A DNA stretch of 8,890 nucleotides, taken from assembly GCA_023515725.1 (NCBI GenBank), contig JALDTO010000210.1, forward strand, positions 1-8,890, written 5' to 3'. Within the stretch, counting starts at the first letter, position 1, and the number at the start of each line of letters is the position of its first letter. This document shows, piece by piece, positions 2,357 through 8,890 of this stretch. Source of the stretch: Amoeboaphelidium protococcarum X5. Its lineage: Eukaryota; Fungi; Aphelidiomycota. The notes below the pieces were generated by a model that had not been told where the DNA came from, made no database searches, and saw nothing but the letters and a program-made list of their open reading frames with translations. Made by a program: the position numbers and the translations under genes.

Positions 2357-3934
2357 TCAATCAAGATCCAAGTCAACAAATTCAACAATTCTGCCGTCCG
2401 CTTTCTCAGCCATTTCAAAGTCAATAATGCGGACGCGTCCACTACTGTCGACGGTCATATTCGCAGGTCTCAAATCTCCATGTCTATAACCAAGAGCATG
2501 GATTTTATCAAGAGCCTCTTGAACATCAGCTTCGCGTTCACTACACTACTCAGTAGTCATAGATTATCCAACATTTTCCAACACGATAACCAGCAGCATA
2601 CTGCATAAAGTACCGTACGCGATAAACCGTGGAATCACCGTGCCTTGCAAAGATTCTAGAGCTTTGTACACTTCAACCTCATTATTAAACTATTCTAATG
2701 CATCTGGTTTCTTTGACAAGTCCACAGTCTTGAAAATGACTCCTACTTCATCTGCATAATTGCCTATAGCAACCGCACCAAATCTACCGCGATAAATTAT
2801 ATTCGTCCAATGGCAGTAAGCATTCAGATCGACTGACTAGTAATTAACTACACGAGCTTTTCTGATGAGAGCCGGACTAACGACCTTGCTGCTATGCGGT
2901 GAAGCGTGCATCCAATCATTAGCAGAGCTCTCAATCAAAGACAGCAAGTAGATCCATGCAGCTACTAATGTGTACGGCTATCTCTAAGAACATTTGATGA
3001 CAGGAGAACACTCCAACACTGATCTCCCTTCCTGTTCAGGATCTTCAACTCTGCGAAGAAACACCGTCTCGTTAAAGGTAGTAAGAACACCATAGCGGTG
3101 GCGATTTAGAGCCATGTAGACGTAGACCTACTCAACCGCTCTTATGATCTTGCCTTTTTCAACCTTATCAGCAGCGTCGGTGCGCTTTTATTTCCTTTAC
3201 TTCCTAGTCTCAAAGTCAACGTATTCTTAATTGTATCTCGGAATCAAATCAACAAGACTTTTAATCGCCCAAGGAGTCTTTAACTCCACTGTTAGTTTTG
3301 GAAGACCTTCATATCTATTGGTAGCCCAAACCAGATCTGGATCTCCCATTACTTTGGCGGCTGATTTAAATAGAAATCCGCAGTTACTGCCAAAATACGC
3401 GTAACTTTCATGGCCAGAGAGAGATTGACAGCATTCACTAATTATATCAAGTGGTCGTCTCACGTACTCTGATTAAACTTCAACCTCACTGTATACAAAC
3501 TGATCTTTTGCCAATGGTACATTTCTACCAAACTTTTAATCAGGTACCTGAGCAATGAAATCTACAGCCCCTTAGTCAAAGTCGGCCCAGACGCGTAAAT
3601 CAAGTTGCGTGATATCAGGATACTTTTTGCTAACACTTGTTGTAGTTTATTAGCCACTTCTTTGAACTCCAACACGGCATTCCTTAAGAGTGATATTGAC
3701 AGCATCATAGACAGTCTTCAGCGCCTTATTCTGTGACTCGACAAGATACTGAAAAATGTCATGCCCACGCAAACTATATTTCTGCGTCAGCTACTCCCTA
3801 GTTAAGAAAAACCAATTTTAATAAGCCAGCAACTGCTTTTCTTCAAGCTCATTGATCAACTATTCTGGTTTAGGTTGCAGAGAGTTCAGATACTCTAAAA
3901 GGCCCTAGACTTCTTCTTCATTAACCTCAGACAT
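2357..3934 (-). CDS. Intact 525-aa PD-(D/E)xK nuclease plus protein kinase-like fusion (Crinkler-effector-like REase-kinase), translation table 6
   Basis: A single frame runs from ATG 3934 to TGA 2357-2359 with about 19 internal TAA/TAG and no TGA or frameshift. It has a helical N-terminal header (MSEVNEEEVQGLLEYLNSL...LTREQLTQKYSLRGHDIFQYL) and nuclease motifs VMGDPDLV, VELKTPW and IRAVEQVYVYMALNRHRYGVLTT. Kinase motifs are RGRFGAV, VIFK, FNNEVEVYKALESLQGTVIPRF, HGDLRPAN and IIDFEMA. Confidence 0.9.
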
Positions 3935-4165: not shown

Positions 4166-4627
4166 ATGGCGGGTGGTGCTCAATGGCCAGAGTTTATTAA
4201 CGGCTCTAAAGACTTGCAGTGTAGAGACTTTGACCGTACAAAGAACAGTGATCAAGTTGATGCACGTGGTGAATTGAGAAAAGTTCTCGCCGATGGAAGG
4301 GAGGAGACTCGATATTTAGCAGTTGAGGCCAAATGCAAAAAAAGCATGGTTTCTATTGAAGAAATTTAAAAGGCTCTGTTACGCATACGCGATGATACAG
4401 ATGTAACGTTACTGGTTGGGACGTCTTTTGACAGTGATTACTTTAAAAACAAGTCATTTGCCGAATTTGCCTCTAAAAATGCAGCTCTGCAGGATTGTAA
4501 ATTCTTGAAAGTGTCTTTGACAAGTGAACCTCCTTCTTTTAGTTTCCTAAAGCGCTTTAAACTGTCATTTTAAGACGGTTTACCTCGTCGTTTAGTGGTC
4601 TTCATTGAAATTGGACAGTTAAAGTGA
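4166..4627 (+). CDS. 153-aa PD-(D/E)xK nuclease-fold protein, possibly the 5'-truncated C-terminal domain of a Crinkler-like gene
   Basis: The listed ORF 4166-4369 extends through two TAA codons to TGA 4625-4627. It reads MAGGAQWPEFING...RTKNSDQVDARG...YLAVEAKCKKSMVSIEEIQKALLRIRDDTDVTLLVG...RRLVVFIEIGQLK. The D...AVEAK motif followed by a helix and a strand fits the REase fold. Confidence 0.65.
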
Positions 4628-4959
4628 ATTTATGAGTGATTGCAATCAAATTATTATCATTGTTCAGTTTTTAATGTCGGATTCTACATTGACGCACTTT
4701 ACAATGTTTCAAGACTGCTCAATCAGTTCAACAATTTTAGATCTTCTTCATCTAGTGCTTTGAGCGCAACTCCAAGCAAAACAGAGCGAACGAAACTGTT
4801 ACTACAATAATAATGTGCTATCATTTTCTATTAGAATACTGATTTATTGCATTATATAAATAACTTAATCTATTTTATCAAGAAGCTGAATTGCAAAGTT
4901 GATCTCCTACTGATTGTGTGTGAGACGATTTAGGGCAAGCCCCGTGGCTGGAAGCAGTG

Positions 4960-6626
4960 CTACTCGAAAGATGGATGGTAAAGTTTACCAACTTAATCAG
5001 TCTGCGATTTTGATCTCTTTTCTCAACCTTCTCTAAAAACTGCCATTAATACATTTTATATCACAATTTGTGATTTCCAAAGATTAACTAGTAAACATTA
5101 TTAAAGCTTAGTTTATAATAGAATAATCGTGCTGTTAACCCACGCAGTGAGGATAGTACCAACCTGCTCAGATAAAATCTTTTAGATTTATACGAACGTA
5201 GAGGTGATTTTGGTGTTAGTCTTAATTTAAATCTGATGGATTTTGTGAAACTGTTCAACGTGAAAAAAGACTACAGTGGTCAAGAGTTTCCCTCAAGACT
5301 GTCTAATGCGGAGGAATTTGTTGTAATTTCTTATCCAAAGTTGTCATTTCATCCAACTTATAGAGCATTGCAGCTTTAGTATTGTCGTTTAATGCTAATG
5401 AAGTATCATTTTTTTGTCTGCCGCTGATGAAACTCAAATTTTAGATGTGGAAGAGCCTGGTAATGATGCAATTACGCGCTGGCATGCGTTTCTTAGAGAA
5501 TCTCCTCCTGAGGTCAGATCTGTGGTTGAATTTTAGAAGGATTTGAGTGAGTAGCTTGAGGAAGTACGCATAAATGGTTTGTTAACTCAAGATTAGTATT
5601 TGTTGGATGAAGTTGCTTATTACAGAGCTGAGTGGATGGGATTGTCTGAATTTCTCCCTAATGTAGCGCAAACTGATGAAGATGCGCCTTAAGTAGACGA
5701 TAATTTCGACTTTAATAAGGACAGAGCCAATTTCTGCGAGGTTGAGATTAGTGACATGGTATCGTGGTTGAGGCGTGTTAAACTGCATGCAGATGTTGAT
5801 TCCCACACTCCTGATGTCAATCCACACAGCCTTAATGAAAAGTAATTGGCCGACTTCAAAATAGTCTCTCAGCATCTCCGAGATAATTAACCTTATGCCC
5901 TCAGACTAATTATCAATGGTACTGCTGGAGTAGGTAAATCTCACACCATAAATGCTTTGTCCACTCTTCTTGGAGATTAGCTATTGCGCGCTGCTCCCTG
6001 TACCAAAGCTGCTTTTCTTATCTAAGGAGTAACTTTGCACTCCTTGCTCAAATTGCCTGTTCGCTCTAAATATCTGAAGCCGCTGTCCGCAAATATGCCG
6101 ACTGAACTGTATGATAAGTTTTGAAATGTTGATTTTTTATAGTAGATGAATACTCTATGTGTTCTTTGAAGATGATCCACTGGATAGATAGAAGGCTGCG
6201 CTAAATCAAGTCTAAGGATGAAATATTTGGCGCTATCAACTTGATATTTGTCGGAGATCTGGCTCAATTAGTGCCTGTTGGTGGAAGTCCGGTCTTCTCA
6301 TAATCTTGCTCCTCAACAAGTGCCATGGCTGGAAAGACTGCGTACCAGACTTTTGACCATATAGTCAATTTGACAGAAATGATGCGCGTACAGAACACGG
6401 ATAATGATTCTCTTTAGGCTCGTTTTATACAACTATTGCAAGGAACAGAGATGGGGACTGTACAGTAGATGATTGGCGTCTCTTACTTAGTAGAACACCT
6501 GCCAGTATCGGTATGGATGAGTTTCGTTAATTTGATAATGCGACCAGATTAGTTGTGCACAATGCATCTGTTAATAAGTATAACACCTAAAAATTGGTTT
6601 CTTTAAACCGGCCAGTTGTAAGAATC
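4960..6626 (+). mobile_element. Decayed Helitron-like RepHel fragment: inter-domain region plus PIF1-family SF1 helicase (N-terminal half)
   Basis: Linker motifs are NLLDLYERR...LNLMDFV and VVISYPKLS...QYCRLMLMKYH. PIF1 motifs are LNEKQ, GTAGVGKS (5918-5941), AAPCTKAAFLIQGVTLHSLL, IVDEYSM, IDRRLRQ, FGAINLIFVGDLAQLVPV, VNLTEMMR and RDGDCTVDDWRLLLSR. Lesions are frameshifts near 5415, 6137 and 6443 and a TGA at 6122-6124. It ends abruptly at PVVRI (6626). The 5' boundary is approximate and no HUH domain was seen. Confidence 0.8.
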
Positions 6627-7269
6627 TGTCCAAAACTTATTAAAAATAGCAGATTAAGTGGGTTTAGTCCCAAGATCTAGAGGGTCAGGAGTCCCTAAAC
6701 CAGCAAGGGAACTGCCTTCTTATTGATTAAACAAATTTAAACATTCAGAAGGCGTCTCATTAGCATCTTACTTACAAATAAGATGGTAAATATCAATCTC
6801 ATTAGCAACCAAACTTTCGTTAGTTAAATAAAACTCACCAGAAATGCTTTATAAATAATAATTAGTATTCCTTATATTATTAGAAGGAATAGCACCAGTA
6901 GTCAAGTGACCAGGATTAGGATTAGCAGATACAATTCTCCAAACTTTCGTTAGTTTAATTAGCCATACATTATAAACTTGTATAACTTTAATTGCCAGCA
7001 GGACTTCCAATTGAACTCGTAAAATTCTAAGTAAGATTGATCTTTTAGCTCAATATCTTGTAACCTTTGAATATGCGAGAAGGCTTATGAGAATAATTAT
7101 TATAAGCAGAGGCACCTGTGTCAAGATCGCGCTTGTAACCAGAAATCTGTACAGTTCTAGCTTTCCCTGGAGGACGCTTAGATTGTCTCTTTCGTTTATA
7201 GGTAGATAACTTGCGTCCATATTTACGTTTGCGTTGAAAACGCTGTTTTCGGTATCTGCTGCGGTACAT
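6627..7269 (-). pseudogene. cap: CRESS virus capsid protein, 3'-truncated, two frameshifts
   Basis: ATG 7269 begins a basic arm, MYRSRYRKQRFQRKRKYGRKLSTYKRKRQSKRPPGK, and the frame continues through TAR codons to ...SLQCMANQTNESL. After a shift near 6945 it reads ...NYYLQSISGEFYLTNESLVANEIDIYHLICKQDANETP..., and after a shift near 6680 LGTKPTQSAIFNKFW. About 9 TAR and no TGA lie along this path. Its position divergent from Rep supports the call. Confidence 0.75.
6809..6955 (+). repeat. Perfect 17-bp direct repeat CCAAACTTTCGTTAGTT, copies 130 bp apart
   Basis: The copies are at 6809-6825 and 6939-6955. Confidence 0.95.
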
Positions 7270-7370
7270 TTCTATGGAGAAAGAAGAAAGGAACAACAAA
7301 CAACCTCTTATAGGAGGTAGACGGAAGACGGTAGACGTCGATGTAGTAAGTAAGAATAAAAACCAACACA
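7270..7370. promoter_or_regulatory. Viral intergenic region with a small hairpin and iteron-like repeats
   Basis: ACCTC-ttatag-GAGGT lies at 7303-7318, and GGTAGACG occurs at 7316-7323 and 7330-7337. No NANTATTAC nonanucleotide was found here. Confidence 0.45.
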
Positions 7371-7673
7371 ATGACAGCTCCTCAAGCAAGATATTATGTG
7401 CTAACTATACCTTTTGCTAGTAGCTATGAGCCTAGTATTAGAGATGATCTGGTATATCTAAAAGGCCAACAGGAAATGGGAGAAGGAGGCTACCATCACT
7501 ATTAAATACTGGCAGTCTTTAAGAAGAAAGTGACTATGACCAGGGCGAAAACATACTTCAATGCTGAGACACACCTAGAAGCTTCTCGCTCTGACGCGGC
7601 TGATGCATATGTATGGAAGGAAGAGACCAGAGTAGAAGGTACCCAATTTGAACTTGGTAACAAACCCGCAAGA
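7371..7673 (+). CDS. rep: CRESS virus replication initiator, HUH endonuclease domain only (SF3 helicase missing); frame stays open to TGA 7893-7895
   Basis: It reads MTAPQARYYVLTIP (motif I)...YLKGQQEMGEGGYHHY[TAA=Q]ILAVF (motif II)...HLEASRSDAADAYVWKEETRVEGTQFELGNKPAR (motif III YxxK). No Walker A or B follows, and the downstream bases are antisense transposase sequence. Confidence 0.9.
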
Positions 7674-8890
7674 GCATTCCAATACTCAAATGACACAGAG
7701 TTAGACTTAACAAGAGCACCCGTCTCGTAAAATTACAGCAATGACTCGAACGCATCGAGATCTTCATCAACTTTGATAAACACATTAGGAATCGATTGGG
7801 TATCTAAGATCACGTTAAATTCCAAATCAGATTACTCTTGTATAGACAAGACACCTCAAGATAATTTCAGATAAATTATAAGAAGAATACTGTGACAACG
7901 CAGAGCAGGGTAGCCTCAAAGACTTTCTCCCCAGCAAGAAATGCACTGGGCCGAACTTTAGGTCATCTCCTTGATCAACTGATGAACTCGTCATTGAAAT
8001 TCCATGGATTTGGACTAATACTGCACATAAGACAGCAAATTCAATTGACAATGCGCACATATCGATGAAATGAGATTAGACAGGGAAAAGCCATATTTTT
8101 TGCCCGGGCTGCCCCATGATTGATCTACCCCTTCCAACGAAACTGGGAACCCATTTGTGCATGACTTTTGCTCTATGCTAAGGTCTAGCTAGACAAATGC
8201 AAAAGTGCTTAGATTATCGCGTAGATAGTCTATCAGGTCTTCTCCGTAATAACGACTGAGTTTCTCCAATTCACTGCGGTTATTTGCCACGCGTGATTAG
8301 GTCCATGAACTGGATTGTTCGAGGCCTTGACCAAAAGATATCTTGCTTATCTATTCAATGGAATTTACTAAGAAGGTTTTGTCGTTTGCCACTTTCTTAA
8401 CCTGGCTATTAAAAGATTCAGCAATGGATGAAGCGCTCATGTCCATGTCAAAATAATGCACTAAGTAGGCCTTGACCCAGAAAGCCCAAGTGTCTCGGCC
8501 AAGGTGTTCGTTCATGTATTGCTTCATGATTGGGAATTCCTCCGCCAGCGGCGATTAAAGTCGTCCGCATTAACAGAATAACGCGACGACCTGAAGTTTG
8601 CCATAAATATATATCTCTGCCCCTTGTCTTTAATGCTAAAAGAGCTTGTCTTTACATTCTGCAAGATGTGCCAAAAGCATAATGCATGGTTTACTCCATC
8701 GTATTCTTTCAATGATCGCTGCAGAGCCAAATCCTTGTCAGAGTAAACAGTTTAACTATTTGAGTGCAAAGCAGACTTTTTAATGAGTGGCGTTGGGAGT
8801 CCGTGCGCAACTTGTACCTCAAAGTGTTGACAAATATATAGTAACAAAAAGCATCGCGATTTAAGAGTCATATCAAGCAATATACTTTTA
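7674..8890 (-). mobile_element. Decayed Mutator-like (MULE) DDE transposase, running in from the window end
   Basis: Motifs are SILLDMTLK (possible first D), TVYSDKDLAL (second D) and HALCFWHILQNV (CxxH). After a frameshift near 8545 come YMNEHLGRDTWAFWVKAY and SASSIAESFNSQVK (catalytic E, about 8417-8419). TGA at 7991-7993 and further lesions follow, with a possible degraded SWIM-like Cys cluster near 7890-7945. Confidence 0.82.

Follow-up and report, generated by a model that had tools for sequence, protein, structure and literature searches.

Genes and features of the locus

The window, the whole 8,890-nt stretch of Amoeboaphelidium protococcarum DNA analysed here, contains a 1,047-bp viral insert (6627–7673) with two divergent genes, a Rep gene and a capsid gene, separated by a short intergenic region and bordered on both sides by host DNA. 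TAR and CAR denote TAA/TAG and CAA/CAG codons, respectively, and table 6 denotes the code in which TAA and TAG are read as Gln. The features are as follows.

2357–3934, minus strand: host kinase gene, serving as code control and host marker; TAR at 19/32 Gln codons
5074–6626, plus strand: left flank, a PIF1 helicase gene that is broken and spread over several frames; Pfam PIF1 E-values 2.5e-11 and 3.9e-4
6627–6950, minus strand: capsid core, predicted jelly-roll; TAA at 6851, 6770, 6722 and 6656; 48% identity to P0137; family HMM E-value 1e-15
6958–7269, minus strand: capsid N-terminal part, ATG at 7269; Arg/Lys-rich arm followed by four TAR (7047, 7029, 6990, 6972)
7270–7370: intergenic region between the divergent genes, delimited from the sequence
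7342–7358, minus strand: putative origin of replication, degenerate, with TATTCTTAC and then TTACTACA, 12 nt upstream of the Rep ATG
7371–7673, plus strand: Rep N-terminal HUH endonuclease domain, 101 codons, ATG at 7371; Pfam Viral_Rep E-value 1.9e-11 (table 6)
7503–7505, plus strand: TAA at Q45 of motif II (HHY-Q), a column that is Gln in 29/29 aligned Reps
7674–8890: right flank, multi-copy host repeat; depth rises from 65–90 to 210–510

The genes beside the insert establish that the window is table-6 DNA. The 525-aa kinase is open only if TAA and TAG encode Gln; its table-6 translation is identical to the NCBI entry and falls into one ≥90% cluster together with A. protococcarum KAI3640014.1 (MIR68_001960). 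In the PIF1 gene of the left flank, TAR occupies 13/22 Gln codons. The assignment of UAR to Gln is stated for A. protococcarum in PMC5304391.

The Rep gene and its placement

Read with table 6, the Rep gene encodes an HUH endonuclease with motifs I–III and keeps 15/15 of the invariant columns of the Rep alignment. It is 69% identical to P0004, a full Rep, and 83% identical over 63 aa to the environmental protein P0126. The SF3 helicase domain is missing because the gene is cut at 7673; the corresponding PF00910 helicase is present in P0004, the nearest full-length relative. Beyond the insert the Rep frame continues into host DNA for 73 codons, to a TGA at 7893–7895, and we found no evidence that this extension is used. 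The initial annotation had placed the in-frame TAA at 7503–7505 exactly at the Gln of motif II, and this placement is upheld by the invariance of the column, which is CAA or CAG in 168/172 locus alignments.

On sequence grounds, the insert belongs to a truncated CRESS DNA virus whose Rep probably belongs to the CRESS-Rec1 group, characterised by a smaco-like nuclease and a circo-like helicase. SaCV-27 (KM821762; P0086 here), which is classed as CRESS-Rec1 in supplement row 360 of Kazlauskas, Varsani and Krupovic (2018, PMC5923481), falls in the same nuclease tree as the window Rep, is 45% identical to it (E = 5e-16) and shares its LTIP / GQxE / HWQ / YVWKEETR / TQFELG pattern. CRESS-Rec1 genomes are described as small and ambisense or unisense (PMC5923481), as here, and the capsid ORF is likewise antisense to Rep in 50/95 relatives. 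The available portion of PMC5923481 names no host for CRESS-Rec1, and PMC10892194, in its accessible part, treats the group without a firm host.

The capsid gene

The reading of the locus as a divergent pair of capsid-like and Rep genes holds, with the Viral_Rep domain on the plus strand and the capsid core, through its homology to P0137, on the minus strand. The capsid reading needs one frameshift, between approximately 7049 and 6935 and likely near 6950–6960. The core frame (6935–6627) aligns with P0137 with an E-value of 2e-33 in a pairwise comparison and 3.4e-22 in a search of 1.84 billion proteins. It is also 41% identical (E = 5.8e-6) to full-length P0139 (335 aa), relative to which the window capsid is cut at about residue 211, losing about a third of its length. 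A word-based protein search with the capsid as query gave no match. P0139 has no Pfam match; its structure model has a mean pLDDT of 65 (above 90 in the core), and the matches listed for it are all viral capsids, including those of STNV and a geminivirus, at modest scores (best E = 9e-5). By way of this model of its homologue, the window capsid is predicted to be of a divergent single jelly-roll type.

The N-terminal part has no significant match, either by profile or against P0139. Past approximately 7050 its frame is set only by a motif, PAGN-TAA, compared by eye with AGNQ/AGDQ (GxQ) in L105 and L007. The TAR codons at 7047, 7029, 6990 and 6972 are less firm because they depend on the position of the frameshift. 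The initial annotation had counted about 9 TAR and no TGA in the capsid path; the absence of TGA stands, and the count becomes 8 TAR on the chosen path, with a further TAA at 6957 in the frameshift zone. A 21-nt direct repeat, 95% identical, lies within the capsid gene (6809–6829 and 6939–6959); its second copy falls in the frameshift zone and possibly reflects a template switch.

The intergenic region and the putative replication origin

In thirteen relatives, selected because a nonamer lies close to their Rep start, NAGTATTAC-TTA is found 7–22 nt from that start and on the same strand, within hairpins whose energies range from −5 to −14 kcal/mol. The window origin folds at only −0.8 kcal/mol, without a stable hairpin, and its nonamer departs from TAGTATTAC at 2/9 places, so that some decay has occurred. 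The TTACTAC tail of the clade is found at the expected place and strand; a nonamer with at most one mismatch arises by itself in 6% of shuffles. Another candidate, TAGTATTAG at 7433 within Rep, was rejected for want of a hairpin.

Relatives in the host genome and in environmental data

The top two of 108 longer Rep matches, P0004 and P0005, are both from A. protococcarum. P0004 is a full-length Rep of 295 aa and lies on a 570-kb contig. The A. protococcarum copies are recorded as hypothetical proteins, MIR68_009857 (KAI3632021.1) and MIR68_012372 (KAI3629593.1), and are 69–70% identical to the window Rep; MIR68_009857, full-length and with an intact helicase, derives from a different virus of the same subclade. 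In the nuclease tree, the window Rep groups with P0004 and P0005 (SH-aLRT 94); this tree and the helicase tree are quick trees with no bootstrap and no outgroup families, the latter built from 50 selected rows. P0005, on a 706-nt contig, is a partial copy that equals P0004 over approximately 185 residues and then diverges, which makes it the second truncated Rep of this species.

The remaining close relatives are environmental. A search of shorter proteins gave 25 matches, of which 12 are 66–90% identical to P0004; with cluster members included, 16 environmental fragments are at least 60% identical to P0004, a comparison in which none of the other 94 full-length Reps exceeds 52%. These 16 proteins (63–90% identical) are, without exception, stored as fragments. 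The helicase fragments of the subclade form one side of the helicase tree with P0004 (SH-aLRT 94), joined by P0119; P0010, full-length in the standard code, sits on a long branch inside the subclade in that tree. Most of the close fragments come from contigs of 2.36–2.64 kb in Logan, ENA, JGI and NCBI, several of them on 2–4 contigs, while P0112, P0131 and P0134 come from shorter contigs (1.0–1.4 kb). The contigs of 2.4–2.6 kb fit whole circles. The capsid homologue P0137/P0150 is likewise a fragment, of 158 aa, and a contig of 2,540 nt carries one of its copies. DNA of the close subclade was not found in IMG/VR, GTDB genomes or plasmids, nor in metagenome contigs (best match 51%) or phages (≤34%).

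More distant members of this Rep type, at most 54% identical to P0004, were recovered as DNA from IMG/VR and metagenomes, and 213/213 loci use the standard code (213 of 218 counted, four having been set aside as duplicate or chance matches and one having no match). Across Rep columns up to 258, these loci have 1,949 CAR and 2 TAR at P0004 Gln columns, the latter in L035 and in an intron of L164; 14 other TAR lie at gaps or frame edges. A host link had been proposed for the whole LTIP/GQQE Rep clade. Because the more distant loci use the standard code throughout, this link is limited to the subclade near the window and does not extend to the wider group. Set against these CRESS-Rec1 loci, the subclade of the window is tied to aphelids and has likely been recoded.

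Several loci in these searches resembled recoded genomes and were rejected as such. L035/L086, the sole locus from a TAR motif scan of IMG/VR, has a capsid gene that ends in TAA and contains no TAR; its lone TAG (L035:793–795), at the Gln of TQFE in a complete standard-code genome, is a nonsense change or a sequencing error. In L074 and L164, the TAR codons sit in GT–AG introns, as read from the sequence. These short introns in CRESS-Rec1 Reps (L074:720–744 and 963–983; L164:2124–2160) keep or shift the frame and mimic recoding in tblastn alignments.

TAA and TAG as glutamine, before or after integration

On the chosen path (7269–6958, 6950–6627 and Rep), 313 codons include 9 TAR, 9 CAR and no TGA; eight of the TAR lie in the capsid gene and one in Rep. 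With the TGA density of the remaining frames as reference, a path free of TGA has a probability of 0.003, a generous figure because it was computed after the path had been chosen. Significant homology fixes just the four TAA of the core frame and the Rep TAA, and the TAR share of Gln codons is 9/18 overall and 5/10 in the firmly aligned parts. When each of the 20 residues was tried at the TAR positions, Gln scored best against both the capsid and the Rep profiles. For Rep, the score was 158.7, versus 155.1 for the runner-up. The capsid profile, run with and without the two nearest capsids, gave 65.9, 59.4 and 51.2 bits with Gln and 63.7, 58.4 and 50.8 with Lys, the runner-up; without those two capsids the Gln margin is just 0.4 bit, and this comparison (51.2 versus 50.8) is the fair one because P0137 was found using the Gln reading. 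Alignment with P0137 places three of the four core TAA opposite Gln and one opposite Ser. The TAR positions thus do align with Gln, at the invariant Q45, at three of four core capsid positions and as the best of 20 residues. The Rep TAA is weak when taken alone, because the standard-code virus L035 also has a lone TAG at a Gln column.

We consider it very probable that the insert is a CRESS-Rec1-type fragment, present as a single copy in a table-6 aphelid genome, and that the virus already read TAR as Gln while it replicated in aphelid nuclei. The initial proposal of an endogenous CRESS virus using the table-6 code is therefore retained, on the strength of TAR at Gln columns, junctions that lie together in one unitig, and little decay.

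The codons might nevertheless postdate capture, because CAR-to-TAR changes are silent in this host. A standard-code virus, for example one of the algal prey or of another culture organism, would then have been captured, the TAR codons would have arisen later through C-to-T change, either neutral or targeted at CpA, and the link to the host would be incidental; we regard this as unlikely. Aphelids feed on algal cell contents, which would provide a route. Several signs of decay also point in this direction, namely the frameshift, the degenerate origin and a TpA/ApT ratio of 1.21 in the insert versus 0.87 ± 0.08 in 204 relatives; together with a low (CA+TG)/(AC+GT) ratio (1.02), the last could reflect some CpA-to-TpA decay. 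The lone TAG of L035 shows that a single such codon can occur in a standard-code virus. Against these stands the distribution of changes in Rep, where the window and P0004 differ at 1/37 conserved columns versus 22/35 variable ones (Fisher p = 1e-6), a pattern which, as far as aligned sequences can tell, is the mark of selection on two viruses and not of decay. His codons, equally open to C-to-T change, are retained at 5/5 aligned His sites, a small control, and silent C before A has not been lost (0.30 in the insert versus 0.29 in 95 relative capsids). Silent TpG leans towards later change, with a slightly reduced value of 0.35 in the insert versus 0.56 in relatives, a difference that does not reach significance against the internal control. 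With a C-to-T chance of 10% or 20%, the probability of at least 9 TAR among 18 is 2e-5 or 0.004, respectively, and that of 5 among 10 is 0.002 or 0.03. Furthermore, two different viruses of one subclade occur in the same host species, and no full-length standard-code member at ≥60% identity is present among the 108 matches. Post-integration decay thus looks too small to account for the TAR codons.

The host range of a probably recoded subclade

If the virus of the insert was recoded, its free relatives should be broken by standard gene calling, and the ends of their stored fragments bear on this. Five fragments end cleanly inside the Rep core, with homology that extends to their final residue; most of seven outgroup fragments do not show this. 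P0126 ends directly before Q66 of P0004, on three contigs from two sources; P0133 breaks off ahead of Q171 and P0131 at a Glu column, while the ends of P0113 and P0134 fall on columns where P0115 has Gln and where the family is 66% Gln, respectively. Four of the five thus end at Gln-bearing columns, which make up 12% of columns (P = 0.001). When the test is repeated for Glu, 5/5 ends agree (P = 1e-4), a better fit than for Gln; therefore the ends mark Gln/Glu columns and not Gln alone, which leaves room for TAR as Glu in some relatives. Under table 6 such ends would be explicable because GAR and TAR are one base apart. An intron start at G|TAA is excluded for P0126 because this fragment ends in Asn; the remaining four have E or G as their last residue and are compatible with such a start. 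The stops in relatives could also be TGA, contig ends or introns. TAR recoding of the free relatives, inferred from these protein fragments, is likely, and the closest environmental relatives were not found as full-length CAA/CAG genes ending in TAA or TAG but as fragments ending at Gln/Glu columns.

Accepting recoding, we think it likely, with some reservation, that a widespread and still-circulating CRESS-Rec1 subclade infects aphelids, reads TAR as Gln, is locked to recoded hosts and has undergone two or more integrations in Amoeboaphelidium, and that databases hold its genes as broken calls. The subclade might instead mainly infect another recoded eukaryote, such as ciliates with TAR as Gln or as Glu, aphelids being an occasional host or having picked up the DNA. 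The fragment ends, which match Glu columns as well as Gln columns, would agree with this, as would the existence of ciliate-code cruciviruses (PMC7468197) and the divergence of the subclade members, which are 30–37% apart and could span several hosts. We give this explanation little credence: the sole eukaryote-named cellular matches among the 108 + 25 Rep matches are A. protococcarum, and the one-base distance between GAR and TAR would make Glu–Gln exchange expected under table 6 itself.

Junctions, flanks and the integration site

A single unitig (4145/4219–7714) crosses both junctions with no differences in 4/4 separately assembled runs, which all come from one sample, likely the source of the window, and so are not independent. 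The right junction is bridged by merely 41 nt. The depth of this unitig, 65–90, is the lowest in the window; no joint is listed in the viral part, and there is no circular joint. The insert is contiguous with host DNA at single-copy depth and is an endogenous viral element. The support that had been sought for the junctions is accordingly at hand for this sample. In a second sample with the same species label (three runs), 4753–8019 is uncovered at 80% likeness with no joint across it, in a contig-based comparison that can show presence and cannot prove absence. An assembly chimera of host DNA and free virus in the culture would fit the restriction of the supporting runs to one sample, possibly the window's own source, and the uncovered interval in the second, but is scarcely credible given the error-free unitig in separately assembled runs, the single-copy depth, the lack of a circular joint and the truncation of both genes.

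On the left, the viral DNA cuts a single-copy, frameshifted helicase gene, which we take to be Helitron-like. The right flank is a different repeat with no continuation of the PIF1 gene; near 8524–8889, on the minus strand, it has a weak MULE transposase match (E = 0.002, which falls short of the curated threshold). Among the repeats listed, neither a target-site duplication nor a terminal repeat occurs at the junctions. The insert is centred on the 5′ intergenic region and amounts to about 40% of the 2.4–2.6 kb of its relatives.

These features can be assembled into the following scenario. A CRESS-Rec1 sublineage would replicate by rolling circle in aphelid nuclei, and ribosomes that decode UAR as Gln would translate its genes. 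Over a long residence in table-6 hosts, CAR-to-TAR and GAR-to-TAR drift would have brought the share of TAR to the host-like value of about half of the Gln codons. A virus bearing TAR codons would be untranslatable in standard-code cells and therefore tied to recoded hosts. An origin-centred piece, about two-fifths of such a circle, would then have been captured at a break among dead mobile elements, between the dead helicase gene and another repeat; capture was probably by non-homologous repair because the ends do not coincide with the nick site and a duplication was not found. Slight decay, including the frameshift and the degenerate origin, would have followed. The insert is most likely an inactive fossil.

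Significance and relation to known systems

We know of no host for most CRESS lineages. Aphelids are sister to fungi and are known as pests in mass cultures of algae. Two independent lines, the endogenous copies and a shared rare code, indicate them as the host here. If this is true, the subclade would be the first virus lineage for aphelids, and the genetic code alone would predict the host of a eukaryotic virus. It would also enable a general test, in which table-6 re-calling of small circular contigs yields recoded Rep clades for comparison with recoded protists. That 16/16 close environmental relatives are stored as fragments points to a blind spot of standard gene calling, and the subclade would be well suited to the study of code adoption acting as a barrier to host range in a DNA virus of eukaryotes.

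Comparable observations exist for other CRESS viruses. Among cruciviruses, at least five CRESS genomes give a complete Rep and capsid only if UAA and UAG are read as Gln (de la Higuera et al. 2020, PMC7468197), and CruV-502 has a UAA at a partly conserved Gln, similar to the window Rep with its TAA at a Gln column. The cruciviruses described there have a tombus-like capsid, no endogenous copy and a host called "elusive", whereas the window holds an endogenous copy. Protist hosts of cressdnaviruses have been established from endogenous or associated DNA for Naryaviridae, Nenyaviridae, Vilyaviridae, Redondoviridae, Kirkoviridae, CRESSV1 and CRESSV19 (PMC9615429). In those systems too, viral DNA assigns a protist host to an orphan CRESS lineage; they differ in lineage and host, and here the code and the endogenous element indicate the same host. 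The terms "genetic code", "aphelid" and "Amoeboaphelidium" have no occurrence in the main text of PMC9615429. PMC13533422 puts the known DNA viruses of fungi at just a handful, and aphelids go unmentioned in its accessible part. No report linking CRESS viruses with aphelids was found in the open-access literature and bioRxiv, subscription journals being outside the scope of the search. Ciliate-code cruciviruses and hosts based on endogenous elements are thus already published; what is added here is an endogenous element whose code and location agree on one host, linked with a free subclade that standard gene calling breaks up.

Additional observations

Four contigs of 4.3–4.9 kb (L011, L021, L076 and L125) contain two Rep or two capsid matches and are dimers or chimeras. 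P0042, a Rep of this group labelled as belonging to a Bacteroidota MAG, is probably from a mis-binned viral contig. Within the window, the kinase gene at 2357–3934 (minus strand) is multi-copy, with a nuclease-like N-terminal part and many variant copies in the sequencing runs; it resembles Crinkler-type kinase effectors. A 153-aa table-6 ORF at 4166–4624 (plus strand) is annotated in NCBI and has no Pfam match; we take its D...EAK motif to be suggestive of a PD-(D/E)xK nuclease, and relatives at approximately 85% DNA identity are present in the second sample.
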